Shown: positions 9,955 through 64,000 of the stretch, piece by piece
How positions within the stretch are numbered: position 1 is the stretch's first letter
Layout: each line of letters opens with the position of its first letter
DNA from: an uncultured bacterium
Lineage (GTDB): Bacteria; Muiribacteriota; CAYSPT01
Assembly: GCA_964593455.1 (NCBI GenBank)
Contig: CAZQHK010000016.1
Location: forward strand, 18,339 to 82,338
DNA length: 64,000 bases
Direction of reading: 5' to 3'
The notes under the pieces: model-generated
What the model was told of the DNA's origin: nothing
Databases searched by the model: none
Seen by the model: only the letters and a program-made list of their open reading frames with translations
Position numbers and translations under genes: made by a program

Positions 9955-11278
9955 TGTGGAATTCTTTCGAAAAATCCTGGACACCCTCGGGGATGAGATT
10001 GTAGCACTTAAAGACGGTTCGACCGTCCAATGGGCGAACGAGACGTTTTGCAGCAACTGGAAAGTTACCCTCGGGGATTTGAGAAAACGACCGGTCTCTG
10101 AAGTACTGCCCGGTCCACGACTGGCGCGGGCACTTTTAAAAGGCCGATCGTTTAAAGCGCGTCTTTACACCGTGGGTGATGATTCTGCTCACGGCACAGC
10201 CCGCTACCGAGCCACGTATCTTCCGGCTATCTTGCCGGTCAGTTCCGGGACCTGGGATATACTGGTTCTCACTCCCATCAGCGGCAGTCCTTCCAGGGGT
10301 GTGGGCACGCACGCCAGGTTGACCTTCAGCGATATAATTGGCGTGAGCAAGGGTATAAAACAGGCCATCAGGACAGGAAAACTGGCGACCCGCCGGAGCA
10401 CCACGGTTCTCATTAAAGGAGAGAGCGGAGTTGGCAAGGATGTTTTTGCCCAGGCCATTCACAACGAGAGCGGCAGCAACCGCCCTTTCGTGGCCGTCAA
10501 CTGTGCCGCTCTCCCGCGTGAACTGATGGAAAGCGAATTGTTTGGCTACATGGGTGGATCGTTTACCGGTGCGGCCCCGGGCGGGCGGCCAGGAAAGTTC
10601 GAATTAGCCGACGGGGGAACTATCTTTCTGGATGAAATAGGCGAACTTCCTCTTTCCCTCCAACCAAAACTGTTGCGGGTATTACAGACCAAAGAAATCA
10701 CCAGGATAGGCGCTGAATGTTCGAAACCAGTGCAGGTCAAAGTCATTGCGGCCACAAAACAGGATCTCGAAGAGAAGGTCAGGGAGGGGTCATTCCGGGA
10801 CGATCTTTTTTACCGCCTTAATGTTATTACCATGCGTATTCCTCCGCTCAGAGAACGAGGCGATGATGTCCCGCTGCTGGTAAAACATTTTCTCTCGAAG
10901 ATCTGTCCTTCCATCGGGATACCGTGCCCGGAAGTGGACGATCCGGTCATGGAAGCATTGACCAGGTGCATGTGGCCGGGAAACGTCCGGCAACTGGAAA
11001 ACGTAATCGAGCGCGAACTTTTGTATCTGCCGGCAGGTGAACGGATCTTGAAGCACATACCCGATGAAGTTCTCCGGCCTGACAGTTCCATTGATCAGTG
11101 CGGTGAAGGTTCAGTCCGGGTCTTCCCGGGGGATGACTTGTCCCTGCGCGCCAAGGAAAAACAGATGATTATCCAGGCGATTGAGAGAGCCAGGGGGAAT
11201 ACCGCTGCCGCCTCCCGCATGCTCGGCATCTCACGGGCAACGCTCTATCGAAAAATGGAACGCTACGGCATAGAGTGA
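9944..11278 (+). CDS. Sigma-54-dependent transcriptional activator (bacterial enhancer-binding protein) with N-terminal sensor domain and C-terminal Fis-type HTH
   Basis: AAA+ sigma54-interaction domain with Walker A GESGVGKD. GSFTGA is a variant of the GAFTGA loop. FYRLNV motif. C-terminal RATLYRKMERYGI helix-turn-helix. Confidence 0.85.
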   Translation: MVGSVEFFRKILDTLGDEIVALKDGSTVQWANETFCSNWKVTLGDLRKRPVSEVLPGPRLARALLKGRSFKARLYTVGDDSAHGTARYRATYLPAILPVSSGTWDILVLTPISGSPSRGVGTHARLTFSDIIGVSKGIKQAIRTGKLATRRSTTVLIKGESGVGKDVFAQAIHNESGSNRPFVAVNCAALPRELMESELFGYMGGSFTGAAPGGRPGKFELADGGTIFLDEIGELPLSLQPKLLRVLQTKEITRIGAECSKPVQVKVIAATKQDLEEKVREGSFRDDLFYRLNVITMRIPPLRERGDDVPLLVKHFLSKICPSIGIPCPEVDDPVMEALTRCMWPGNVRQLENVIERELLYLPAGERILKHIPDEVLRPDSSIDQCGEGSVRVFPGDDLSLRAKEKQMIIQAIERARGNTAAASRMLGISRATLYRKMERYGIE

Positions 11279-11438
11279 CCGTGTAAAGACATTTTTTTAA
11301 AAAAATTAAACTTCAAATAACTCCCTCCCTCCGACTTATCCACACCTACTTGACCGCTAAAGCTGTGATTAATAGAGGTCTTAAAAATTATCAACAAGTT
11401 ATTAACAATTTATCCACAAGTTTTTCATAAAAAAATAC

Positions 11439-11466
11439 TTGCAAGCTGGGCTCAGGTGGGTATAAT
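11439..11466 (+). promoter_or_regulatory. Sigma70-type promoter of the dcw operon (-35 TTGCAA, 16-nt spacer, -10 TATAAT)
   Basis: TTGCAA at 11439-11444 and TATAAT at 11461-11466, about 70 nt upstream of the mraZ start, in the only sizeable intergenic gap ahead of the cluster. Confidence 0.45.
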
Positions 11467-11474
11467 AAGTTACG

Positions 11475-11515
11475 TAGTGGAGATCAAGTGGTGTTTAAGT
11501 GGGGTAAAGTGGGGG
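11475..11515 (+). promoter_or_regulatory. Array of four direct repeats (A)AGTGG(G) at 10-11 bp spacing, putative MraZ operator
   Basis: GTGG cores at 11477, 11488, 11499 and 11509, between the -10 element and the mraZ RBS. Helical-turn spacing and GTGG core match the MraZ binding-repeat architecture described for E. coli (TGGGN x3) and Firmicutes/Mollicutes (GTGG). Confidence 0.4.
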
Positions 11516-11538
11516 CGGATTAGTGAGGGAGGTCTTCT

Positions 11539-11964
11539 GTGTTTATTGGACATTATGAGCATACCGTAGATGATAAAGGGCGGCTCATAATTCCTTCCGA
11601 CTACAGAAAACTGCTCGGCAAACTGTTCGTCCTCGTCAAAGGCCTGGATAAAGCGATTACCATCTATCCCAAGGATGAGTGGGAAAAAGAAGCAAAGCGG
11701 CTATCCTCATTTTCATACCGGCAGAAGCATGTCCGTGATTACGTGCGGCCATTCTACGCTTCAGCCACCAAGGTTTCCCTGGACCGACAGGGAAGAATCT
11801 GTATCCCGATTACCCTGAGAAAGGAGGCCAGAATTCAAAAAGAAGTCGTTATCAACGGTATGGGAAGTTTTGCTGAAATATGGGCACGAGAAGAGTGGGA
11901 TCGCTTCAAGCAGGAAGCTGACGCAGTGTATGAAGAGAGGGCAGAATTGCTGGAAGAGATATGA
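11539..11964 (+). CDS. mraZ: Transcriptional regulator MraZ
   Basis: GTG start with GAGGGAGG RBS. FIGHYEHTVDDKGRLIIP and the second DxxGR repeat (DRQGRICIP) are MraZ signatures. First gene of the dcw cluster. Confidence 0.9.
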   Translation: MFIGHYEHTVDDKGRLIIPSDYRKLLGKLFVLVKGLDKAITIYPKDEWEKEAKRLSSFSYRQKHVRDYVRPFYASATKVSLDRQGRICIPITLRKEARIQKEVVINGMGSFAEIWAREEWDRFKQEADAVYEERAELLEEI

Positions 11965-12035
11965 GTATGTATTATGAGGGGGATTTAGACGTACGTATTA
12001 CTAAGGGGATCTAGAAGGAGGAGCGGGCGGTAGAT

Positions 12036-12521
12036 ATGATGCGACAGATACAAGATCACCAGCTGAGTACAAGAGAATCAGAGAAGGGGCTGGCAGCAAT
12101 ACTTACTGTGGCTGAAGCTTTGAAAAAAGAAAATGCAAAAGACAAACAACTTCAGAAACGGACTAAATCGAGTAAAAGTAAAATGTTTCAAGGTATGCAG
12201 GAAGAGATGACGTTTTCCGAGAAAATGAAATACCTGGACCAGCTTCCGGAACACAAGATGGCTCAGGGAAGTAAAGGCGATCGATATTTTGATATCGGCA
12301 CCTACCGGCCGTGGGGTATGGAGAGTATCAGTTTTCTGGTTGATATGATGCGTGAAAACGCGACTCCGATGGAAATAGCTTTTTTGAGCAGAAGATCATA
12401 CTACGATGTGCTGGCTATGCACCGTATTTACAAGTGGGTTATAAGGGAAGATTCTCAGGAGCGCCGTTTGCGTTTTAAGAAGAGGTTAAAAAAAGTAGTG
12501 GAAGCGGAAGAGGAGAGGTAG
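12036..12521 (+). CDS. Hypothetical protein inserted between mraZ and rsmH; possible small DNA-binding protein
   Basis: Strong RBS GAAGGAGGA ahead of ATGATG. 161 aa, Lys/Glu-rich N-terminus. C-terminal TPMEIAFLSRRSYYDVLAMHRI segment resembles a sigma-region-4-like HTH. No homolog recognised. Confidence 0.5.
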   Translation: MMRQIQDHQLSTRESEKGLAAILTVAEALKKENAKDKQLQKRTKSSKSKMFQGMQEEMTFSEKMKYLDQLPEHKMAQGSKGDRYFDIGTYRPWGMESISFLVDMMRENATPMEIAFLSRRSYYDVLAMHRIYKWVIREDSQERRLRFKKRLKKVVEAEEER

Positions 12522-12556
12522 AGAGTATTTCTGTCGCTGGTGGTCACTCGCCGGTT

Positions 12557-13465
12557 ATGGTACGGGAAGTACTGCACTATCTGAATCCATGTCCGGGAAA
12601 CAGATACGTTGACTGCACCGTCGGCGCCGGCGGACACGCTCTTGAGATTCTTAAAATTATTGGCTCCTCAGGCTCGCTGCTGGGTATAGACTGCGATTCA
12701 GAAACACTGACTTTAACTTCCCGGCGTTTGCAGCCGTGGCCAAACTTCATCCCCTTTCATGCTAATTTCTTCGAACTGTCTCGCATCCTGTCGGAAGTAG
12801 GGTGGACCGGGTTTGATGGGATCATGTTCGATCTTGGATTTTCATCTCTTCAGGTCGACGATCCCGAACGAGGATTCAGTTTTACCAGGGACGGTCCTCT
12901 TGATATGCGCATGGATCGAAAAAGCAACCGTTCGGCGGCGGACCTGGTTAATGATCTTTCAGAAAAAGAACTGGGTACGGTCATAAAGAAGTTGGGAGAG
13001 GAACCTCTGGCCAGGCGGCTGGCGCGGGCTGTGGCCCGGGAGAGAAAAAGGAGTCGGATACAAACAACGGGAGAACTAAAATCGATACTGGAAGGATCGG
13101 TTCCAACCGGGAATCCAATTCGTAAACAACTGGCGGTCAGGCGGACCTTCATGGCTCTGCGCATTGCCGTTAACCGTGAACTGGATGATTTGAGAGAGGT
13201 CTTGCAGACGGGAGTGAAGTACCTTCGTCCCGGAGGACGAATGGTAGTACTGTCATATCATTCGCTGGAAGACAGGATCGTGAAACATGCGTTTCGCGAC
13301 CTGTCGGGCCGTTGCACCTGTCCTTCTTGGGTGCCTGAATGCCGGTGTGAACCCAGAACATTGCTAAAAATCCTGGCTTCGAAGCCGATAATTCCAGAAG
13401 AGGGAGAAATACGGGGAAATCCGCGTGCACGAAGTGCGAAACTGAGAGCAATTGAAAGGTTATAA
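12557..13465 (+). CDS. rsmH: 16S rRNA (cytosine1402-N4)-methyltransferase
   Basis: DCTVGAGGHA SAM-binding motif, FDLGFSS and SYHSLEDRIVK motifs. The true N-terminus may lie a few codons upstream; HSPVMV resembles the canonical HIPVLL start. Confidence 0.9.
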   Translation: MVREVLHYLNPCPGNRYVDCTVGAGGHALEILKIIGSSGSLLGIDCDSETLTLTSRRLQPWPNFIPFHANFFELSRILSEVGWTGFDGIMFDLGFSSLQVDDPERGFSFTRDGPLDMRMDRKSNRSAADLVNDLSEKELGTVIKKLGEEPLARRLARAVARERKRSRIQTTGELKSILEGSVPTGNPIRKQLAVRRTFMALRIAVNRELDDLREVLQTGVKYLRPGGRMVVLSYHSLEDRIVKHAFRDLSGRCTCPSWVPECRCEPRTLLKILASKPIIPEEGEIRGNPRARSAKLRAIERL

Positions 13466-13468
13466 ACG

Positions 13469-13903
13469 GTGAGAGATCGCTCGATCATGCAATGGCGATA
13501 CGGAAAGAAGCACTCTCTCGCCATGTCCGGCTTAAATCGGGGGGACCAGCAGTCTCCTGCTTTATCCGGTGAAGGAAAACGGTGGGCCACCGGAGTTTCA
13601 AAGCTCCGCGGGGGGCGTCGCCTGGTGCTGGTCCTGGGGTATACCTGCCTGGTGGTTCTCCTCTCGGCCTTCGTGTTCCTGCATATTTCCCAGTATGTGG
13701 AAATGACGGAAATACAATTCAGAATTAGTAAGCTAAAAAGAGACTTTACCCGGATTGAACGGGATATTCAGGTTTTACAGTTCGAGTTTGAAAAGATGGC
13801 CAGTGCCACCACTATCGAGGCCGAAGCCGTCAGCCGACTGGGGATGGTTCATCCGTCGGAAATCATGTTTGTTCTTTGGAACGAGGAAGGGAAACCCAGG
13901 TGA
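13469..13903 (+). CDS. ftsL: Cell division protein FtsL-like (single TM helix plus coiled coil)
   Basis: Position between rsmH and ftsI. TM segment LVLVLGYTCLVVLLSAFVFL followed by a heptad-like region. Start codon uncertain. Confidence 0.6.
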   Translation: MRDRSIMQWRYGKKHSLAMSGLNRGDQQSPALSGEGKRWATGVSKLRGGRRLVLVLGYTCLVVLLSAFVFLHISQYVEMTEIQFRISKLKRDFTRIERDIQVLQFEFEKMASATTIEAEAVSRLGMVHPSEIMFVLWNEEGKPR

Positions 13904-16041
13904 GGGGACCGGTAGATCGTTGGCGCATCATTATTTTCGGCGTCATATGCCTTGTCTTCATGACACTGCTGCTGGTACGCCTTTTTGATATCCAATACCG
14001 ACAGGGTCCTCGTCTGAGGCGTTTGGCTCTTCAAGCACACGTAAAAAAAGTCATCATCGACCGCCAGCGAGGCACCATGACCGACGGCAACGGTCGTGTC
14101 CTGGCCGTCAGCATGAAAGTGCCGTCCTGTTTTGTCGATCCCAGCCAGATTAAAAATCCGGACGAAGTGGCTGCACTTCTCACTCCGCATATCAGGGGGG
14201 TTTCACCGGAAAAGCTCAAAAAGGCTCTTAATAAAAAAAGCCTTTTTGCCTGGATCGAACGAAAAATGGAAACCAAACGGGCTGCGGCCATCAAAGCGCT
14301 GAAGATCAAGGGAGTTTACTTTCAGAAAGAGTACAAGCGCTACTATCCCCGCGAGAGCATGGCCGCGAACCTGTTGGGATTTGTAGGTATGGACGACAAG
14401 GGACTCGAAGGAATCGAATATTTTTATGATAAGATCATGAAATGCGACTCCGGGTATGCCATGTACAAGGGAGATGTCCGGGGATATGAAATCCCCGAAA
14501 GCAACCGGGAAGAGAAACCTCCGGAAGGTGGATTTGACCTTGTGCTCTCTATCGATGAAGTCATTCAGCACATCGTCGAGGAAGAAGTCGGTAATGTTTA
14601 CCGGAAGTATAAAGCAGAGTCCGCCATGGGGATTGTCATGGACCCGCATACCGGTGAAATTCTGGCTATGGCCAACTTTCCCAGCTACAATCTTAACTCC
14701 TTTGCCAATACCAAAGCCTCCACCAGGCGAAACCGTGTCATCACCGATATGTTCGAACCCGGTTCGACCTTCAAGCTCATCATGGCTTCGGCTGCCGAGG
14801 AAATGGGGCTGGTTAACAGCATAGACCGGTTCGAATGCGACGGGAAAATACGTATTGGGGGGTTTACCATCCGTTGCCACGCCTCTCACGGCATCCAGAC
14901 TTTTACCCAGGTAATTGCCAACTCCTGCAATGAAGGTACGGTTGAAATGGCCAAGAAAATCGGAAAAAAACGGTTCTATGAGTATATCCGTCGGTTCGGC
15001 TTCGGCAAGAAGACTGGTATTGCTTTGCCGGGTGAGGTGCCGGGCCGGATTATGTCGTACAAACGGTGGGCGGATATCGACCTGGGAGCTATCGGTATGG
15101 GACAGGCGGTGGGGATTACTGCTCTACAGATGGTTTCGGCTGTATCTGCTATCATGAACGGCGGCCAGCTGGTCAAACCGCGGGTAGTGCTGGCGATTGC
15201 TGACCCTGAAACCGGCCGGGTTGTGAAGCGGTTCCCGAAAGAACTCAGGCAGCAGGCCATCTCTCCCGAGACCGCGGCAAAAGTGATCGAAATCATGAAA
15301 GAGGTCGTGGTTAGCGGTACCGGCCGTCGGGCAGCCATGAAAAATTACGTGTTGGCCGGCAAGACGGGAACAGCCCAGAAGATTGACCGTGAGACCGGTA
15401 AATACTCGAGTAAAAAAGTGATCTCTTCATTCATTGGCGGCGGACCTTTTCCCGACCCACGGTTTACCATCATGGTAGTCATGGACGAGCCTAAAGACAA
15501 ACGGGCTTCCACGGGTGTGGTGGCGGTAGAACCGTTTAAACGTATAGCTGAACGGTGTTTGAATTATCTTTCGGTGCCGCCTACGGTGGCCGAAGAATCG
15601 GACGATGTCAAAGCGGCTGGTGTGGCTCAGGCTCAGGCTGATGAAGATGTGGGCAGGCAATTCATGGTCCTGGTCCCCCGATTTTTGGGTATGGGAAAAG
15701 CCAAGGTTGAAAGTATCGCCCGGCAAAACGATATGAACATCGATCTGGGCGGTGACGGCCCGGTGGTGATATACCAGTCGCCCGAACCGGAAACTCCCAT
15801 CCTCCCCGAATCCCGTATCGTTGTCTACCTGGGCTATTCATATTCTACTCCGGTTTCTCTCTCCAACCGGATGATGCCGTGCCTGGTGGGTAAAACCATG
15901 ATGGAGAGCGGCGAAGAGTTAAGTCCGTATCCGGTCCTGGTCAGGTTCATGGGCTCCGGTCTGGCCTACGCCCAGGACCCGGTACCCGGCACCCCCCTGG
16001 AAACAGGCGCGGAAGTCAAAGTATTCTTCGCCGCGGATTAG
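13876..16041 (+). CDS. ftsI: Penicillin-binding protein 3 / FtsI (class B transpeptidase) with two C-terminal PASTA domains
   Basis: N-terminal TM, dimerisation domain and transpeptidase motifs STFK (FEPGSTFKL), SCN (NSCNEG) and KTGT (AGKTGTA). Two C-terminal PASTA-like repeats (VPRFLGMGKAKVESIARQ... and MPCLVGKTMMESGEEL...). Confidence 0.9.
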   Translation: MERGRETQVRGPVDRWRIIIFGVICLVFMTLLLVRLFDIQYRQGPRLRRLALQAHVKKVIIDRQRGTMTDGNGRVLAVSMKVPSCFVDPSQIKNPDEVAALLTPHIRGVSPEKLKKALNKKSLFAWIERKMETKRAAAIKALKIKGVYFQKEYKRYYPRESMAANLLGFVGMDDKGLEGIEYFYDKIMKCDSGYAMYKGDVRGYEIPESNREEKPPEGGFDLVLSIDEVIQHIVEEEVGNVYRKYKAESAMGIVMDPHTGEILAMANFPSYNLNSFANTKASTRRNRVITDMFEPGSTFKLIMASAAEEMGLVNSIDRFECDGKIRIGGFTIRCHASHGIQTFTQVIANSCNEGTVEMAKKIGKKRFYEYIRRFGFGKKTGIALPGEVPGRIMSYKRWADIDLGAIGMGQAVGITALQMVSAVSAIMNGGQLVKPRVVLAIADPETGRVVKRFPKELRQQAISPETAAKVIEIMKEVVVSGTGRRAAMKNYVLAGKTGTAQKIDRETGKYSSKKVISSFIGGGPFPDPRFTIMVVMDEPKDKRASTGVVAVEPFKRIAERCLNYLSVPPTVAEESDDVKAAGVAQAQADEDVGRQFMVLVPRFLGMGKAKVESIARQNDMNIDLGGDGPVVIYQSPEPETPILPESRIVVYLGYSYSTPVSLSNRMMPCLVGKTMMESGEELSPYPVLVRFMGSGLAYAQDPVPGTPLETGAEVKVFFAAD

Positions 16042-55540: not shown

Positions 55541-55673
55541 TTTCTCACCTGCAAAAACATTATTCTGGTTACGTGTTCCGGATCAATTTGGTGATATAAT
55601 CAGAACGATCTGTAAACGTGGTATCTTTGTTGCAAAGTCAGGTTTGGAAGACCCTGATAAGGAGATTTCCCGG

Positions 55674-56645
55674 ATGAATTGGTTCTACATGAAACTCCAG
55701 CCGAAAGATGAGGATGATGTGCTCTTCGTTCATTACGGGTTACCCCGGACGGGAAGTTCTACCATCCGGTTTCTCATCCGCCGCTACTGCAACCTTCTCG
55801 GACTGAAATGGGAATCTTTCGAGGCGCAAAACGCGGTAGTCAATCCCGGTTGTAAATATCTGCTGGTTGAAATCCCGTATCCTGTTCATCTGGCCACCAA
55901 CCGGGAATGCCGTTATATAACGACGCTGAGAGATCCGGTCAAAGCGGTGTGTTCCTGGTATTTCTGGCTCACCAGGATCGGCCGGAAAATCACTCTGGAA
56001 GACTATGTCCGGCAATTACCGAAATCCTATAATCTCATGTCGCGCTGGCTCATAAGGCTCAATGATGAAACCGTGAGCGAAATGAATCGCGCTCAACCGG
56101 ATTTTATGAACGACACGACAGGATTTTTCAATGATATTCCTGATGATGAGTTGTACAAAGCAGCTCTCGAGGCAATAGAAAGCAAGATATCATTGATCGG
56201 TATCCTGGAGCAGTTCGAGGATTTTTCTTTTGCTATGCTCGACTTGTTTGCCTGGAAGATTCTGCCTGTCTATAGCCGGACGAATTACAGTATAAAACCC
56301 AGAGATTGGTCATTTAACCGTCTCGAAAAATCGATGAAAAAGAAGATTATGTCCTCTTCAGCTGTGGACAGGCGCGTGTTTTCTTATGTGAGGAAACGTT
56401 TTCGGGATGTGTCTGCGGATGTGCGGAATAAGTATGGTAACGAGATCGAGAAATACCGTTCCTTCTGCCGCCAATTGGATGATTTTATCGTTCGAGAAAA
56501 AGGACTGGTTTTGGAAGATGGGAATATCGTCTCTCAAAACTGGGAACAAACCGTTGTAGAAAAGCCTATAGGCATCGAAATAAAAGCCTCGATACAGAAG
56601 CAGTTGGGAATAATCATGGCAGAGGATTGGTTACCTATTATCTAA
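55674..56645 (+). CDS. Sulfotransferase-family protein (PAPS-dependent)
   Basis: AAGGAG RBS 9 nt before ATG 55674. 5'-PSB motif YGLPRTGSST and 3'-PB motif TLRDPVKAV. The ORF call from 55644 (TTG) is the longer alternative. Confidence 0.65.
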   Translation: MNWFYMKLQPKDEDDVLFVHYGLPRTGSSTIRFLIRRYCNLLGLKWESFEAQNAVVNPGCKYLLVEIPYPVHLATNRECRYITTLRDPVKAVCSWYFWLTRIGRKITLEDYVRQLPKSYNLMSRWLIRLNDETVSEMNRAQPDFMNDTTGFFNDIPDDELYKAALEAIESKISLIGILEQFEDFSFAMLDLFAWKILPVYSRTNYSIKPRDWSFNRLEKSMKKKIMSSSAVDRRVFSYVRKRFRDVSADVRNKYGNEIEKYRSFCRQLDDFIVREKGLVLEDGNIVSQNWEQTVVEKPIGIEIKASIQKQLGIIMAEDWLPII

Positions 56646-56749: not shown

Positions 56750-56934
56750 TAGCCTGGATATTTCACCAGTCTTCCTGCTGCGGCCACGGATGCACCCGCA
56801 TCTTCTGCGTTGTGCTCGGTCGCCTGTCCTCGACGTATCGCAGAGGATACGTCTGCGGAAGGCTCGGTTGCACGCCTTGAATTTGCAGGCACCTCCGCGA
56901 CCTCGCTACGGAAACTCGTGAAATATCCGGGCTA
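56750..56934. mobile_element. MITE-like repeat element, copy B (~185 bp), inverted relative to copy A
   Basis: Left TIR TAGCCTGGATATTTCACCAG and right TIR (reverse complement) TAGCCCGGATATTTCACGAG. The interior is the reverse complement of copy A at ~85% identity. The right-end TAG (complement of CTA at 56932-56934) is the stop codon of pmbA on the minus strand. Confidence 0.6.
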
Positions 56935-58356
56935 GGCCGAAACCGAGACATCGTCCACCAGTATCGCGGGACAGAAGATATTGTTGCTGGCCTGGTAAGG
57001 TGTGTCTCCCAACGCCAGCAGGTGGTTGAGATCTTCCAGGATATTGCCCGATACCATGGTGTTCTTCACGCGGCCGGCGAGCTGCCCGTTCTTGATCCGG
57101 TATCCGAGATAGACATTCACCGAGTAATCCCCGTTTTGAATATCGCCCCGGCCGGCGCCCATGACCTGGTTCACGAGCAGACCATCGTCCACCATGCGGA
57201 TAATCTCTTCGAGCGGGGCAGGTCCTGGAGAGACGGTTATATTGCTGATGGTGGTGTGCGGCATGACGGCAAAACTGGTACCGCCGCTGCGGCTTCTCCG
57301 GTACCCGTTGCCGGTGGGTGGGATTTTGAGACGCGCGGCGGTCTCCAGATCGCAGATAATCGAGCTGGGAATGCCGTTTTCTACCAGGACGGTCCGCCGT
57401 GACGGCGTTCCCTCGTCGTCAAAGGGCGAGCTTCCGGGTAGAAAATCCATGGTGCTGTCATCCACCACCGTCAGGTTTGAGCTGAAGGTTTCCTTATCCA
57501 TCCTGGATTGCAGGATGGAGATACCTTCCAGAAAACTCCGGCCGTTCACGGCCGCCAACAGCGGCAGCAAAATGGCATTTATCGCCGATCCGGTAAAAAG
57601 CACCGGACATTGTCCGGTGCTCATGGAGCTTATTTCGCGGGCCAGTTGAACTTTTTCCACGAGTTTCCGGGCCACACCCGCTAAATGCTCGGGGTCCCAA
57701 CGGCAGGAGTAAGAACTCTCGGAACAGGAGAGAATGTCACCTTCTTTTACGAGTTTAGCCGAGACGAATACCACTACCAGGCTCTGGAGATAGCTCCCTT
57801 TCAAAGCCTGGTTGTTTCTTACCGATTTGAGCTCGAACACGCGATACACATCAGCCAGGACATTGGCGTCGGGTAGATCTTTCAGCACCCGGTCGACGAC
57901 CTCCCGGCCGATATCAATGAGACTGTTGATGTCCTGGTCCGCCACCTCCCGGTCGAAGGTTTTGACCGGAGAAAAAGAGGTGGCCGGGGTCAGGAACGAG
58001 GCTGCCGAGGTGGGACCGAGCGGGGCCATTTCCAAAGCCAGCAGGAGCGCTTCCATCAATCGGCTGGACTCGGTGGTGGAGGCGATTCCCATGCGTCCGT
58101 CCCGTAAAACTCTGAGTCCCCAGCCTTCGGACTCCTTGTGTTGGCTCTGTTTGAGGTCGCGGTTCTCAAAGCTGAAATGATCCAAATCCCGCGTTTCATA
58201 AAAAATTTCCAGGGATGTCCCCCGGGCCCTGGCGGCTTCTTCAAGCCCCGCGTAGAGAACTTCACGGGCCTGCTCGTTTTTCAGGGTGCTTTCGTTTCCT
58301 TGAATCTCCGTCATCTGCTTCATGTCCTTCACGTTACATGCCTCCAACCACGACAT
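56932..58356 (-). CDS. pmbA: TldE/PmbA-family protein (non-catalytic partner of TldD metallopeptidase)
   Basis: PmbA/TldD fold, lacks HExxxH. Paired with and overlapping tldD. Probable start at M12 (MKQMTEI). Confidence 0.8.
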   Translation of the reverse strand: MSWLEACNVKDMKQMTEIQGNESTLKNEQAREVLYAGLEEAARARGTSLEIFYETRDLDHFSFENRDLKQSQHKESEGWGLRVLRDGRMGIASTTESSRLMEALLLALEMAPLGPTSAASFLTPATSFSPVKTFDREVADQDINSLIDIGREVVDRVLKDLPDANVLADVYRVFELKSVRNNQALKGSYLQSLVVVFVSAKLVKEGDILSCSESSYSCRWDPEHLAGVARKLVEKVQLAREISSMSTGQCPVLFTGSAINAILLPLLAAVNGRSFLEGISILQSRMDKETFSSNLTVVDDSTMDFLPGSSPFDDEGTPSRRTVLVENGIPSSIICDLETAARLKIPPTGNGYRRSRSGGTSFAVMPHTTISNITVSPGPAPLEEIIRMVDDGLLVNQVMGAGRGDIQNGDYSVNVYLGYRIKNGQLAGRVKNTMVSGNILEDLNHLLALGDTPYQASNNIFCPAILVDDVSVSA

Positions 58357-59695
58357 CCCTGATCATCAGGGCCGGGCATCCCTTTGAACGGGGCAGGGGA
58401 AACTGTCCGCCTTTCCCGCATCCACCGCCTTCGCTCCAGACTATCTCGTCGCCGACGGCCTCGATGTTTTTGAGCGATTCGAACACGTTTCCGGTCAGCA
58501 TCACATTACGCACCGGTTCCGCTATTTTGCCTTTTCTGATCATGTATCCATGCTGGGCCCTGAACGTAAACATCTCCTGCGAGGTCTGGCCGCCGGTGGT
58601 GCCGCAGGCCAGTATACCCAGTTTTATGTCGCCGATCATCTCGTCCAAACTGGTATCACCCGGTTCCACAAACGTATTGGTCATCCGCACCAGCGGTGAG
58701 AATCGGTGGTCAAGGGCCCGTGCGTTTCCGGTAACGGGTTCATCCATCCTGAAAGAGGTCTCCCGCGAATGCATCCGGCCAACCAGTTCCCCTTCCCGTA
58801 TCAGGTAGGTTTTTTTGGACGGGACACCTTCATCGTCGTAGAGATAGGACCCCCGGTGTCCCGGGATAGCGGCTCCATCACCGATGTTCAGAGTCGATGG
58901 CCCGAACCTGGTACCGATCGAGAGCAGTTCGCAGAGCCGCTTGTTGTTGCAGACCGAGTCCCCCTCCGACAGGTGTCCGAAAGCTTCGTGAATGAAGGTA
59001 CCGGCCAGGTAGGGATCGAGCACTACCGGATAACGGCCTCCTTTGACCGGGGAAGCCGAGAGCATATTCACGGACCGTTTGACGATCTCTTCCACCTGGT
59101 CGTGGCGTGATTCGAACATTTTGCCGGCTTCGATGGTTCCAAAACTCATGATGGCTTTTTGAATGGTGTCGTAGCGTCGGGCTAAAGCGCTGGCGCTCAT
59201 GGTATAGTCGGCTTTCTCCTGGGATACCAGGCAGCCGTCGGAGGTTAGAATCGTTACTTTTTTAAACACGTCATGGTAAGCGACGACGGAACTTTCTATG
59301 GCCGGCCGGTGAGAGAAAATTATCCCGTTATAGTCTTCCAGCATGGAGAGTTTGCGGGCCAGTAGTATCCGCCGTGGATCGTCCTCGGGTTTGATTTTTA
59401 TCTGGGCTACCTCCCGGAGAACCGGTGCCAGGCCTGTCTTCTGGGCGGCTACGCATCGGGCCATCCGGTCGGCCAGGCGGATATTATACTCCAGATTCTT
59501 CAGATTGTTGAACGAGGAAAATCCCCATCCTCCTTCGTGGAAGACCCGGACATTACCGCCCACGAAGGTGCTTTCCGTCAATTTTTCCAGTTTCTCGCTT
59601 CTGAAAAGAATCTCGGTGGTATCGTATTCCTCTATCCGGATTTCAATGTAGTCGGCCTTGATAGACCGGATAGCGTCCACCACATGGTTCTCCAC
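58334..59695 (-). CDS. tldD: TldD-family zinc metallopeptidase
   Basis: HEAFGH (HExxxH) motif. C-terminal Gly-rich GGGCGKGGQ loop typical of TldD. Confidence 0.9.
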   Translation of the reverse strand: MENHVVDAIRSIKADYIEIRIEEYDTTEILFRSEKLEKLTESTFVGGNVRVFHEGGWGFSSFNNLKNLEYNIRLADRMARCVAAQKTGLAPVLREVAQIKIKPEDDPRRILLARKLSMLEDYNGIIFSHRPAIESSVVAYHDVFKKVTILTSDGCLVSQEKADYTMSASALARRYDTIQKAIMSFGTIEAGKMFESRHDQVEEIVKRSVNMLSASPVKGGRYPVVLDPYLAGTFIHEAFGHLSEGDSVCNNKRLCELLSIGTRFGPSTLNIGDGAAIPGHRGSYLYDDEGVPSKKTYLIREGELVGRMHSRETSFRMDEPVTGNARALDHRFSPLVRMTNTFVEPGDTSLDEMIGDIKLGILACGTTGGQTSQEMFTFRAQHGYMIRKGKIAEPVRNVMLTGNVFESLKNIEAVGDEIVWSEGGGCGKGGQFPLPRSKGCPALMIRDVVVGGM

Positions 59696-59963
59696 GGTAC
59701 CGGGTCTCCTTTCATGATTTTTAGCGCTCTCGTTCAGGAGAAGCTATGATACCATGAATAGACAGCCACTCCTTGATCCGTTTAATCATTATCTCTCCGA
59801 AGTTAAACTCATCTTCATTTTACTGTGCTGCGGGGTCGACGTCAATTTTGAATGCAGGGAGGGCTTAAACCACTTCCAAAGAGTAGGCCGATGTGCTACA
59901 ATTAGGCCTTCATTCAGACCGTGTTTTATTTGGAATTATTTATCTTGAGAGGAGCGTACCCAT

Positions 59964-61052
59964 ATGCCGATTGTGAACGCTCTGCGGTTTGACTATAAAC
60001 GTGGAGCTATCTTAAGCGACGAAGAATACTGGCATCGCCGCCGCCGCCGGACATTTTTCTCCGAGAATCTTCACAATATTGTTCCTGAACAAATTTCAGA
60101 CAAAACGGGACTTGAAGCTGTGTTGGGCGGGGCCGGGAGTCCTACCTTCTTTCTTGATGTGGTCCGGACGGTTCGCTCCCGGTTGGCGGTCTATCTGCCG
60201 GAAAACGGGGAAGAACTGAAAGAAGGCGCTCCTTCCACCCTTGAAGAGTTGGGAAAGATCGTTCTCGAGGAACTGCACAAAGCGCTGAAACGACGCCTGG
60301 AGAACGTGATTCGTCTCTACTTCGGATTTGGGATGGATGATCTTAACCAGGGATCTTTTGATTTCAACGGCGAGTCGGTGGAGATTCTTCAGGACCTGGT
60401 TAAGAAGGAAGCCAGGGAGGTTTCTTCGGGAAAAGGAAAAGTGTCGTTTATCAACGACCTGATCGAGAGTCGGGGAGTGCTTTTCGGTTATGATGAAAAG
60501 AAAGGCGTCACCTGTTATTACATTAACGTCAAAGAAGGCGTTCTCTCCGTCACTTCGGGCGGTTTTGAAGCAATCGGCAACGGTAAGTACGCTTCGGGAA
60601 TCACGTTTGCCGAGTTCCTGAACGGTAAGATACTGGACGAGCGCCGAGGCGGATTTGACCCGGTGGAAGGAATGATTGTCCTGCTTAAATCCGGCCTGGC
60701 CGCGGTACAGTATTTCAGCGAAGTAGGCGGAGCCTTCAATATCATCTACCTCGACAATACGGCCGGCTCCCACGCCGAGCGTTATCGTGAAATCCCGTAT
60801 CATACCACCACGCTGGCTGCTGAAATTGTCACCGCTATGGAGTGCGGCGCTTTAGACTACGAGAAAGCATATAACCTGATGGGTTCCTTGATGTTTGGCG
60901 GATCTTCCGTGGAGAAAGTTGAAAAGGAACTCTTTGCTTCCGTTCCCGACGCCGATCGTCTCCATCTGCTGTTGGAGGGCTACAAACTCAGTCAACTGGA
61001 GGTACAGGATCGCAAATCTATCGGACATACCGGAGAGGAAGCGGGCCAATGA
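59964..61052 (+). CDS. Hypothetical protein, paralog 1. N-terminal domain resembles HslV/proteasome-beta Ntn hydrolases but has Pro at position 2
   Basis: Strong RBS [29 protein letters not shown] aligns with HslV [40 protein letters not shown] aligns with HslV DKVIAGFAGGTADAFTLFE. Has a ~180-aa C-terminal extension of unknown fold. Paralogous to the next gene. Confidence 0.35.
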   Translation: [362 protein letters not shown]

Positions 61053-62149
61053 CTTCGATCAACGCCATCCGTTTCGACAGCCTTAAAGGGGCCATGGTAT
61101 GTGACGAATGCCGGGGTTGGAACCCGGAAGACATGAGAATTTACTCCGCCGATAAGATCAAGCCGGTTATTCCCGATGAAATCAGGGACCGTTACGGTTT
61201 AGTCGCCTGTTACGGCAATACCGGTTCTTCCAGCACCGGTGACGAGATCAAACAGAAAATCCGGGAACGGGTTCAGAAAGAGTTCGACGATGCCCGGGAA
61301 CGGTTGGGCCGTCCGCCCGAAACATTCCTGACTATACGGAACCTGGCCTACCTGGCTTACGACGAGCAGTGCAAGATGAAACACAGGCACGTGGACGAGC
61401 ACATGGTCAGCCATTATGGTTTTAACACCCGGGATTTCTGCCGCGGATCCTACACGATCGATGACACCACCCAGCCGGGTGGAAAAAGAAAAATAGAGAT
61501 CAAGGACAAGGACGTACAGAAGGAGATTTTAGAAGCGCTCACCTGGAAGAATCGCGGGCAAACCAACCGGGGCGTGTTCGTCAATGCCGGACTGCTGGCC
61601 GGTTATGAACCCCGGGAAGGGTTCAGGATCTACCACACATCGCTTATCGAGTTCATATGCGAACCGGTTCAGTTTATCTTTCTGGCTGAAGGTTCGGGGC
61701 TGGACGCCACCGATCTCTTGATGTCCGAATACATGGGCCGGAAATCATTACCGGAACGGCGAGACGTGATCGACCGGGTGGAAGGTATCATGGCTCTCAT
61801 CTGTTCGGTAAATACCGCCTCGCGGCACAATATCGGGGTTGGGGGATATTTTAACATCATCCTGGTTGACGGCCGGGAGAAGGACCCGGCCTCAATGATG
61901 CGCTGTATCAACGACCACCGGGCCAAATTGGTGACCCAGATAGCCGATGCTTACACGCAGAACCTTGTTTCCCGCCGATTGGCCTTTAAATTGGTGGAAG
62001 ATGTTTTATATAATAAGGCCGGGTTTCAGGAAACCCGCCAGGCATTTTTTGAGGGATGCAAAGAACCGGAGATCCTGCGAAGACACCTTCGTGGTTACCG
62101 GATTGCTTCCCCGAAAGGTCCGGTACGGTTAGGGATATTTCTTCCATAG
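61049..62149 (+). CDS. Hypothetical protein, paralog 2. HslV/proteasome-beta-like N-terminus beginning Met-Thr-Ser (potential N-terminal Thr nucleophile)
   Basis: ATGA-coupled to paralog 1. MTSINAIRFDSLKGAMVCDE and YGLVACYGNTGSSSTGDEI blocks parallel paralog 1 and HslV. Shares the later blocks G(I/L)(T/D)..(E/D)(F/L)L.G(K/R) and FNII(Y/L)(L/V)D with paralog 1. Confidence 0.35.
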   Translation: MTSINAIRFDSLKGAMVCDECRGWNPEDMRIYSADKIKPVIPDEIRDRYGLVACYGNTGSSSTGDEIKQKIRERVQKEFDDARERLGRPPETFLTIRNLAYLAYDEQCKMKHRHVDEHMVSHYGFNTRDFCRGSYTIDDTTQPGGKRKIEIKDKDVQKEILEALTWKNRGQTNRGVFVNAGLLAGYEPREGFRIYHTSLIEFICEPVQFIFLAEGSGLDATDLLMSEYMGRKSLPERRDVIDRVEGIMALICSVNTASRHNIGVGGYFNIILVDGREKDPASMMRCINDHRAKLVTQIADAYTQNLVSRRLAFKLVEDVLYNKAGFQETRQAFFEGCKEPEILRRHLRGYRIASPKGPVRLGIFLP

Positions 62150-62168
62150 CCTGGATATTTCACGAGAG
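62147..62168. repeat. Solo terminal repeat (TAGCCTGGATATTTCACGAGAG) of the MITE-like family
   Basis: Identical over 16 nt to the left TIR of copy B and near-identical to B's right TIR. The TAG is the stop codon of CDS 61049-62149. No matching second TIR within 300 bp. Confidence 0.35.
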
Positions 62169-62231
62169 TAGGCACACTGGTTAGATAGTCAAACAGGACC
62201 CGGGGATACGGATTAATGGAGGTGATGGAGT

Positions 62232-63674
62232 GTGGTGGCACGAAGCGTAGCCCTCTGGGCGCTTGACATGGCCATGGAGCATGGCGCCTCTTATGCTGAA
62301 GTACGGCTTCACCGCATCATCTCCGAGTCGATCACCATGCGGGACGGTATCGTCGTCGGGCTTAACCGGCATAGCGAACTGGGTATGGGCGTACGGGTCC
62401 TGGTGGAAGGCGCCTGGGGGTTTGCCGGTAACCCCGACCTGACCGGCGATAAAGTGACCAAAGCTGTTAAACGGGCTATTGCTATTGCCCGGGCCTCAGC
62501 CCGGGCCGGCGGTACGAAGGTCAAACTCGCTCCGGTGGAAAAACAGATCGGAGAATGGTGCTCGCCCTGCGAAAAAGATCCCTGGACGGTACCGCTGGAA
62601 GAGAAAATCGATCTACTGCAGCGCTGCGACGACGCCATGGCCGCGGTGCCGGGGGTGAAGGTCCGGGAGTCGATCCTGCGGTTCTGGAGAGAACACAAAC
62701 TGTTGGCGACTTCCATCGGTACCCTGGTCGAGCAAACTATCTACAACACCACTGCCGGTGTTACTGCTAAGGCGGTGGATAAAGGAGATTTTCAGGTCCG
62801 GAACTATCCGATGTGTTTCGGTGGTAACTGGCGACAGGCGGGATACGAGGCGGTTGAGAAACTGGATCTGCTTAAAAACGCCGGCCGTGTGGCTGAGGAG
62901 GCCGTCCAGTTGCTCAAAGCGGACCTGGCGCCCACCGGCAAGGCGGACTTGATCCTGGGCGGGAACCAGCTTGCTCTCCAGGTACACGAGTCCGTAGGTC
63001 ACCCGATCGAGCTCGACCGGGTCCTGGGAACCGAGGCGGATTTTGCCGGTACCAGCTTCCTGTCTCCGGACATGTTGAACAACTTCACCTACGGGTCAAA
63101 GGTCGTCAACATCGTGGCCGATTCCGTTACTCCCGGCGGACTGGGTACGTTCGGATACGACGACGAGGGAGTGCCGGCGGGCAGCCATGATATCGTCAAG
63201 GAAGGCCGGTTTATCGGGTTTCTCACGTCCCGGGAGACTGCCGCCGATATCGGCACGGTTTCCATGGGCGCCATGCGGGCCGACGGATGGAACAATATCC
63301 CACTGATCAGGATGGTCAATGTCAGTCTCCTTCCGGGGGATTGCACCTATGATGAAATAATCGAGTCTACCGAACGGGGGCTGCTCATCACCTGTAACCG
63401 CAGTTGGAGCATCGACGACAAACGTCTCAATTTTCAGTTTGGCGGAGAGATCGGGTGGTGGATCGAGAAAGGCCGGATCGTCAAGATCGTCAAGAACCCC
63501 ACCTACAACGGTATAACGCCGGTTTTCTGGCGTAGCTGCGATGCTATCGCCAACCGGGACAGTTGGAAGATGTGGGGTTTTGCCAATTGCGGAAAAGGTC
63601 GTCCGGCCCAGGCCGGACGGGTGGGGCACGGCGTCAGTTGTGCCCGGTTCAGGAACGTGGAGATAGGGGTGTAA
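62232..63674 (+). CDS. tldD: TldD-family zinc metallopeptidase, second copy
   Basis: HESVGH (HExxxH) motif. C-terminal Gly/Cys-rich FANCGKGRP loop. Clearly homologous to, but divergent from, the tldD at 58334-59695. Confidence 0.9.
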   Translation: MVARSVALWALDMAMEHGASYAEVRLHRIISESITMRDGIVVGLNRHSELGMGVRVLVEGAWGFAGNPDLTGDKVTKAVKRAIAIARASARAGGTKVKLAPVEKQIGEWCSPCEKDPWTVPLEEKIDLLQRCDDAMAAVPGVKVRESILRFWREHKLLATSIGTLVEQTIYNTTAGVTAKAVDKGDFQVRNYPMCFGGNWRQAGYEAVEKLDLLKNAGRVAEEAVQLLKADLAPTGKADLILGGNQLALQVHESVGHPIELDRVLGTEADFAGTSFLSPDMLNNFTYGSKVVNIVADSVTPGGLGTFGYDDEGVPAGSHDIVKEGRFIGFLTSRETAADIGTVSMGAMRADGWNNIPLIRMVNVSLLPGDCTYDEIIESTERGLLITCNRSWSIDDKRLNFQFGGEIGWWIEKGRIVKIVKNPTYNGITPVFWRSCDAIANRDSWKMWGFANCGKGRPAQAGRVGHGVSCARFRNVEIGV

Positions 63675-63676
63675 TC

Positions 63677-64000
63677 ATGATCCAGGAAGACTGGGCCAGG
63701 CGCCTGCTTAACGAAGCCATCTCCTTTTCTTCGGCGGACGGGACGGAGATCATCCTGACGGGGGGCAAAATGTTCCTGACCAGATTCGCTGACAACCGCA
63801 TTCACCAGAATGTTTTGAAAAAAGATTACGAGCTTATGGTGAAGACTGTCCTGGGAAATAAAGCCGGGGTGGCTTCCCGCAATGTCTTCGACGGTATCGA
63901 GCTCAAACGCCTGGTAGACGATGCTCTGGAGATAACGCGCCACCAGAAGGAAGACCCAGAGCTGCCGCCTCTGATGGCCATGCCCGATCCTGAAAAGAAT
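63677..64000 (+). CDS. pmbA: TldE/PmbA-family protein, second copy; 3' end beyond the window
   Basis: ATG 3 nt after the tldD stop. The frame is open to the window end (108 codons). The N-terminal region carries no HExxxH; assignment rests on size and pairing with tldD. Confidence 0.55.
   Translation, partial: MIQEDWARRLLNEAISFSSADGTEIILTGGKMFLTRFADNRIHQNVLKKDYELMVKTVLGNKAGVASRNVFDGIELKRLVDDALEITRHQKEDPELPPLMAMPDPEKN

Follow-up and report, generated by a model that had tools for sequence, protein, structure and literature searches.

A predicted active/inactive pair of proteasome-like paralogs bracketed by two TldD/PmbA gene pairs in an uncultured Muiribacteriota bacterium

Results

The X1-X2 gene pair and its fold

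We analyzed a stretch of 64,000 nucleotides (the window) from an uncultured bacterium of the Muiribacteriota, lineage CAYSPT01 (GenBank assembly GCA_964593455.1, contig CAZQHK010000016.1, positions 18,339 to 82,338), in which two adjacent genes, here called X1 and X2, are enclosed by two pairs of genes for TldD/PmbA (TldD/TldE) peptidases. The order is pmbA1 and tldD1 on the minus strand, followed by X1, X2, tldD2 and pmbA2 on the plus strand, with the open reading frames (ORFs) exactly where an initial annotation of this DNA had placed them (Table 1). That annotation read the island as a dedicated TldD/E-coupled proteolytic system with a proteasome-like center. Its description of X1 and X2 as translationally coupled paralogs holds: the two proteins are 26% identical over 355 residues (E 3e-37), the stop codon of X1 overlaps the start codon of X2 in the sequence ATGA, and the two proteins align from their first residues (MPIVNA in X1, MTSINA in X2).

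Neither protein matches any Pfam or NCBIfam model even at E values up to 1, the Proteasome family PF00227 included, nor any PHROG or PADLOC model, and phmmer gave no significant sequence match in the PDB. Their homologs are all metagenomic proteins, unnamed or labeled 'hypothetical', without Pfam domains. Because no curated model matches, membership among the proteasome-like proteins rests on fold and active-site residues, and is assigned at the level of the superfamily.

The X proteins display the four-layer alpha-beta-beta-alpha fold of the N-terminal nucleophile (Ntn) hydrolases. Fold comparison gave scores of 20-23.1 for beta subunits of the 20S proteasome (aligning up to 192 of 203 residues of the target), 21.2 for Anbu, 15-20 for alpha subunits, 18.0 for HslV and 16.5 for BPH; connectase scored 11.4 and other Ntn hydrolases 12 or less. 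In sequence, a profile of the family found only marginal PDB matches (E 0.17-0.7), but 21 of these 22 are proteasome subunits, aligned on a block that ends in Gly-Ser-Gly, and the same Gly-Ser-Gly is aligned by hhalign with the beta subunit of T. acidophilum. The initial annotation had confined the likeness to the first 70 residues and found nothing to match the C-terminal half; the models correct this, indicating that X1 and X2 are each proteasome-fold proteins over their whole length, with insertions.

The additions to the core are considerable. X2 has an insertion of ∼55 residues (residues 124-178) behind long H1 and H2 helices, and the X proteins carry a short helix between H3 and H4 as well as three additional C-terminal helices, which end in a conserved LRGY[KR] motif. 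The motif lies at residues 345-350 of X2 and 337-341 of X1 (Table 1), and is present also in archaeal members of the family, there at the very end of the protein (e.g. ...LRGYKV). It may serve in assembly or docking.

Active-site residues are kept in X2 and lost in X1

We surveyed the active-site positions in 80 unique X2-type and 63 unique X1-type proteins. (A word-index search with X1 gave just 8 relatives; X1 orthologs were drawn from the loci instead.) All 80 X2-type proteins have Thr2, Asp19, Lys36 and Ser216, the last within Gly-Ser-Gly, and Gly56 is nearly invariant; these residues correspond to Thr1, Asp17, Lys33, Ser129 and Gly47 of the proteasome. X2 begins Met-Thr, and there is no in-frame start upstream. 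The X1-type proteins are very different: the threonine position is occupied by Ala in 46, Gly in 10, Ser in 5, Pro in 1 (the window protein) and Thr in 1, the active-site Lys is found in none of the 63, and the Ser in 6. X1 nevertheless retains the structural glycines and has invariant residues of its own (R28, R227 and E320), which show it to be under selection. Judged by its residues, X1 would thus be a catalytically dead, yet selected, partner of X2, presumably a scaffold or regulatory one. This division into a predicted active and a predicted dead member, and the pair as a conserved unit, had been overlooked by the initial annotation.

One bacterial X2 lineage departs from this pattern (L032-L036). 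It has no X1 upstream, and its proteins carry three residues (MQN or MQI) before the Thr, owing either to a start that was called wrongly or to a minimal propeptide. Normal X1-X2 pairs are present as well in these metagenome-assembled genomes (MAGs).

The pair is the conserved unit of a small family

Scanning one genome from each GTDB species yielded 79 X loci, to which 7 contigs were added; lineages defined at 70% identity number 41. X1 stands directly upstream of X2 in 37 of the 41; the exceptions are three archaeal singletons and the orphan X2 lineage just described. Among 68 unique X1-X2 pairs, the 4-bp overlap recurs in 33, and the spacing is 30 bp or less in 60. What is conserved as a unit is X1 together with X2.

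The family is closed and has few members: when 1.84 billion cluster representatives were searched exhaustively with HMMER, only 363 proteins were returned at E values up to 1e-3. Its loci occur in Planctomycetota (including Kuenenia), Vulcanimicrobiota/Eremiobacterota, CSSED10-310, Ignavibacteria/Bacteroidota, Wallbacteria, Schekmanbacteria, Sumerlaeota, MAGs labeled Gemmatimonadota, and Woesearchaeota, and many genomes hold three or four of them. In one 4.29-Mb contig (ENA ERZ21831077, contig_2; L083, L084 and L085) there are three X1-X2 pairs, two of them ∼15 kb apart, all in different contexts. The Woesearchaeota singletons (L080, L082 and P0222-P0299) are ∼310 residues long, all of the active type, and adjoin housekeeping genes such as tRNA synthetases and TrmB/AsnC-type regulators.

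In a neighbor-joining tree, all 30 X1 sequences sampled group together, as do the 36 bacterial X2 sequences, each set in a clade of its own; the archaeal singletons branch outside both. This topology indicates that a single duplication within the family gave rise to the pair, an event unrelated to the split of proteasome alpha and beta subunits.

A phage or defence origin was considered and rejected, given the PHROG and PADLOC results above and the lack of any relative in IMG/VR. Matches in BFVD do not extend beyond the bare proteasome core, and their query TM-scores are ∼0.41 or less.

Gene neighborhoods differ between lineages

Across the 41 lineages we took the two genes on each side of the pair and scanned these 126 proteins against Pfam. 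They fall into 169 Pfam families, of which PmbA_TldD is the most frequent, yet it accounts for just 6 proteins, in 3 loci. The 25 neighbor families listed include no AAA+ family (families past the top six match 2 of the 126 neighbors each), and a universally conserved neighbor was rejected on the basis of this census and all-against-all clustering over the 41 lineages.

Most X pairs lie amid housekeeping genes (polyprenyl synthase, RecN, NAD kinase, DXS, RNase Y, tRNA synthetases), and in the CSSED10-type clade an Opp peptide-transporter operon stands upstream with housekeeping genes downstream. These surroundings raise the question of whether the window's arrangement is coincidental, X1/X2 and TldD/PmbA being unrelated housekeeping genes joined by rearrangement in one lineage. 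The flanks of the six-gene island fit that explanation, since they are unrelated genes: to one side lie genes for sugar modification, to the other band-7/NfeD and IleRS. We nevertheless consider coincidence rather unlikely, in that peptidase genes (TldD/PmbA, M20 and M29) recur beside X pairs in independent lineages, to which the Opp transporter can be added, and in that X2 and tldD2 are compactly spaced on the same strand.

Large Ser/Thr kinase genes occur within 10 kb of the pair in 14 of 41 lineages, several directly adjacent (Table 1). Since these phyla are rich in kinases, this proximity is probably background.

The TldD/PmbA association is limited to a few lineages

The flank examined around X pairs was roughly 10 kb. 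The full TldD/PmbA bracket was found only in L001-L004, whose X2 proteins are 75-76% identical to that of the window. TldD/PmbA genes lie within 10 kb of the pair in 4 of 41 lineages, namely this bracket clade, L029, L006 and L009, and their arrangements differ. L029, whose X2 is merely 43% identical to the window X2, has on one strand tldD, pmbA, a gene for an 825-residue membrane/ILEI-domain protein, X1, X2 and a Peptidase_M29 aminopeptidase gene. L006 has a gene for a circularly permuted ATP-grasp ligase (CP_ATPgrasp), tldD and pmbA on the opposite strand, 3.4-6.2 kb upstream of the X pair, and L009 a partial TldD/PmbA gene 3 kb from the pair. The two types of TldD in the window are each represented: the L006 enzyme is of type 1 (39% identical to tldD1) and the L029 enzyme of type 2 (39% identical to tldD2). 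Against an estimated background of one or two TldD/PmbA pairs per genome, or about one per 2-4 Mb, 4 of 41 lineages is probably more than expected by chance.

In the window itself, X2 and tldD2 are co-directional and separated by 82 bp, and a scan of this gap (62150-62231) revealed no terminator-like site, so that X1, X2, tldD2 and pmbA2 are probably one transcript. The tight bracket, its preservation in L001-L004 and the recurrence of TldD/PmbA in L029, L006 and L009, together with the top rank of the family among immediate neighbors, are what speaks for the initial proposal that X1/X2 and both TldD/PmbA heterodimers work as a dedicated machine, two-stage or compartmentalised, for proteolysis or peptide maturation. 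The wider survey makes this unlikely. The other 37 lineages have no TldD/PmbA gene in the examined flank, and in genomes with three or four X pairs none of the pairs adjoins TldD/PmbA. Seen from the other side, no X gene was found in any of 80 metagenome loci around the closest relatives of TldD2 (49-55% identical; 739 kb, with 39 loci of at least 8 kb), and TldD2-type enzymes are very common, with more than 528 matches from one scan. Conserved synteny with TldD/PmbA as a general feature was thus rejected both from the X side (79 loci and 7 contigs) and from the TldD2 side.

A model in which the island matures a ribosomally synthesised precursor peptide was likewise rejected: there is no conserved small precursor ORF, the sole small intergenic ORF (64 residues, between tldD1 and X1) being deleted in L001 and L004. 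This ORF is Cys-rich and is probably no gene.

Of the initial interpretation, then, the proteasome-like kinship stands, borne out by fold and active-site residues, while the general, dedicated coupling to TldD/E has largely fallen, the link being at best a facultative, lineage-specific neighborhood. The remark that no such coupling had been described agrees with our literature search, which found no paper linking TldD with proteasome-like proteins or citing accessions of the X family.

An ATP-grasp operon in one X2 subclade

In the X2 subclade whose proteins start with MTVVNA, the operon CP_ATPgrasp - Peptidase_M20 - X1 - X2 - CP_ATPgrasp is kept while its flanks differ between contigs (Table 1). 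This operon suggests a different kind of activity, in which X1/X2 would be a specific amide-bond enzyme (a peptide ligase, transpeptidase or de-tagging amidase) working with ATP-grasp ligases. Such a role has precedents among relatives: Anbu is found together with an ATP-grasp protein, a transglutaminase and Alpha-E, a combination that hints at a system for peptide synthesis (PMC5666114), and connectase is a proteasome homolog that acts as a ligase (PMC7980362). The large insertions could provide the specificity, and in L006 the CP_ATPgrasp gene adjoins the TldD-PmbA pair near the X pair. For the family as a whole we regard this explanation as improbable, because only about 5 of 41 lineages have ATP-grasp genes within 10 kb and the window has none, and because X2 retains the H1 and H2 helices that connectase is without (PMC8665760). 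A role in ligation or de-tagging, tied to ATP-grasp enzymes, is a real alternative in at least one subclade. The L006 locus also unites in one place the two recurrent contexts, ATP-grasp and type 1 TldD-PmbA.

Discussion

A proposed two-subunit threonine peptidase

From the observed fold, residue conservation, pairing, distribution and neighborhoods, we infer that X1 and X2 are likely to make up, as its two subunits, a proteasome-like threonine peptidase that had not been characterized before. X2 would be the catalytic subunit: because its initiator Met directly precedes Thr, methionine aminopeptidase should remove Met1 and expose Thr1, with no propeptide involved. X1 would be the non-catalytic partner in an X1/X2 hetero-oligomer, since the constant order of X1 before X2 and the 4-bp overlap imply co-synthesis at roughly 1:1. 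As there is no unfoldase gene beside the pair, the enzyme would most likely act without ATP, on peptides or unfolded polypeptides. In the lineage of the window, its products could be handed over to TldD/PmbA for further trimming, which is plausible in that TldD/E acts processively on unfolded peptides, trimming them as they are fed into a narrow channel (PMC5810440).

Several points weigh against this proposal. The hetero-oligomer is read from gene order only, and L032-L036 and the archaeal members, all without X1, indicate that X2-type proteins can stand alone. Proteasome residues Asp166 and Ser169 are replaced by Asn and Val in the hhalign alignment of the X family. The large modeled insertions (∼55 residues and three C-terminal helices) might alter the contacts within a ring, a point discussed in PMC8665760, or block its assembly, and by analogy with connectase, monomeric or dimeric non-proteolytic roles are possible.

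A bolder version of the two-subunit proposal would make X1/X2 an independently evolved, heteromeric, alpha/beta-like and self-compartmentalising proteasome homolog of uncultivated bacteria, serving as the degradative core of ATP-independent pathways whose partners vary with lineage: TldD/PmbA, M20 or M29 peptidases, or CP_ATPgrasp 'tagging' ligases. We think this quite unlikely, yet if true it would amount to a bacterial system of modular design, of the tag-and-degrade or degrade-and-trim kind, that has not been described before. The recurrent peptidase and ATP-grasp neighbors, the TldD/PmbA island included, are leads to the function of X1/X2.

The significance of the pair lies in the split itself. 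One hallmark of the 20S proteasome is that its subunits are divided into catalytic and non-catalytic ones, in contrast to HslV, BPH and Anbu with their single type of subunit (PMC8665760). The X family appears to have reached the same division of labor through a separate duplication in a small, deep-branching family, and the pair offers a two-gene system in which to ask how and why proteasome-like particles gain dead subunits and how insertions affect assembly.

Comparison with known systems

The X proteins differ from each of the characterized families. Compared with 20S subunits, they are only 10-18% identical, have no propeptide, carry the ∼55-residue insertion after H2, the short one between H3 and H4 and the three extra C-terminal helices, and have no AAA+ partner in sight nearby. 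X1 lacks the N-terminal (H0) extension of 20S alpha subunits and is a paralog of X2, not an alpha homolog. HslV is a single subunit, while the X proteins are two paralogs and twice as long, with no HslU gene nearby and no NCBIfam or Pfam match to HslV. Anbu, too, is a single homo-oligomeric subunit; its operon partners (ATP-grasp protein, transglutaminase and Alpha-E) are all absent from the window. The MTVVNA subclade resembles its operon in having CP_ATPgrasp, there together with M20, though neither transglutaminase nor Alpha-E was seen.

A further comparison is with the 'proteasome homologs with multiple insertions' (PMI), represented by e.g. OGZ26396.1 and HDY66466.1, among the 22 new proteasome homologs reported by Fuchs, Alva and Lupas in 2021 (PMC8665760). 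By description, X and PMI proteins share a metagenomic provenance, insertions after H1/H2 and between H3/H4, and the lack of a propeptide and of an AAA+ partner. The 2021 census gave no informative genomic context for the new families and did not describe gene pairs of active and dead members (PMC8665760). Since X sequences such as OGL43578.1 and OQA18071.1 were public before 2021, the X family may fall within one of its PMI clusters. This cluster is unlikely to be PMI-4, which has 501 sequences and occurs also in phages, compared with 363 representatives and no viral members for the X family.

The flanking TldD/PmbA genes and minor features

The four flanking proteins belong to the Pfam PmbA_TldD family (C-terminal domain E 2e-35 to 5e-59). 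As the initial annotation had noted, both TldD copies have HExxxH and both PmbA copies lack it, and the same is true of the C-terminal Cys-Gly-Lys; PmbA2, which runs past the end of the window, was judged by its full-length ortholog in L001 (450 residues, with PmbA_TldD_3rd and without HExxxH). This pattern resembles that of E. coli, in which the metal site of TldD (His262/His267/Cys454) is absent from TldE (PMC5810440): there too are three PmbA_TldD domains, HExxxH and a C-terminal Cys-x-Lys in TldD only, and adjacent genes. In contrast to E. coli, no gene for a microcin- or CcdA-type substrate was seen, and there are two pairs, mutually only 25% identical. The two TldD copies share 25% identity, as do the two PmbA copies, so both are old paralogs and not the product of a recent duplication. 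None of the four reaches NCBIfam equivalog status as E. coli or archaeal TldD/PmbA: the TldD copies score at most 260 and 146 bits (against 635) and PmbA1 80 bits, far under cut-offs of 438-635 bits. The listed ATG of pmbA1 may precede the true start by a few codons. Its L001 ortholog has a called length of 466 residues.

Table 1. Features of the window and of other X loci; positions in other loci are those of the named locus.
Feature	Sequence	Position	Strand	Description
pmbA1	window	56932..58356	-	TldE-type, no metal site; Pfam PmbA_TldD_3rd E 4.9e-59, PmbA_TldD_1st E 2.9e-12; no HExxxH
tldD1	window	58334..59695	-	catalytic metalloprotease subunit, type 1; all three PmbA_TldD Pfam domains; HEAFGH at 236; C-terminal GGCGKG
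tldD1/X1 divergent intergenic region	window	59696..59963	.	268 bp; alignment with L001 and L004; promoter scan
64-residue ORF	window	59754-59948	+	between tldD1 and X1
X1	window	59964..61052	+	proteasome-fold subunit, predicted catalytically dead; begins Met-Pro; active-site Lys and Ser lost
LRGY[KR] motif of X1	window	60972-60986		residues 337-341
X2	window	61049..62149	+	predicted catalytic subunit; Thr2, Asp19/Glu20, Lys36, Gly56, Gly215-Ser216-Gly217
LRGY[KR] motif of X2	window	62081-62098		residues 345-350
tldD2	window	62232..63674	+	catalytic metalloprotease subunit, type 2; Pfam; HESVGH at 252; C-terminal NCGKG
pmbA2, N-terminal 108 codons	window	63677..64000	+	gene extends past window end; PmbA-type by full-length L001 ortholog
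333-residue ORF	window	55644-56645	+	no Pfam match
tldD to Peptidase_M29 gene	L029	3119-12229		one strand
CP_ATPgrasp-tldD-pmbA	L006	895-5042		opposite strand to X pair
CP_ATPgrasp/M20 operon	L084	6155-13226		DUF1287 sometimes after the operon
CP_ATPgrasp/M20 operon	L086/L087	4203-9032
CP_ATPgrasp/M20 operon	L088	4264-10469
CP_ATPgrasp/M20 operon	L048	17096-21041
Kinase locus	L021	6319-8658		others besides the five given
Kinase locus	L030/L031	∼11054-15630
Kinase locus	L046	2728-4761
Kinase locus	L049	5539-8676
Kinase locus	L065	11189-14440
X2 without X1	L034	9920-11035		example from L032-L036
Archaeal singleton	L080	10001-10942		Woesearchaeota
Archaeal singleton	L082	10001-10924		Woesearchaeota

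In the divergent region between tldD1 and X1, alignment with L001 and L004 reveals GAGAGGAGC as a conserved ribosome-binding site ahead of the X1 ATG, and the promoter scan found one promoter-like site, on the minus strand. Upstream of the island, the window contains a 333-residue ORF where local GC content is ∼45%, against ∼55% around it. Since L001 has genes for radical-SAM and glycosyltransferase-9 proteins at the equivalent position, this ORF may be a recent insertion.

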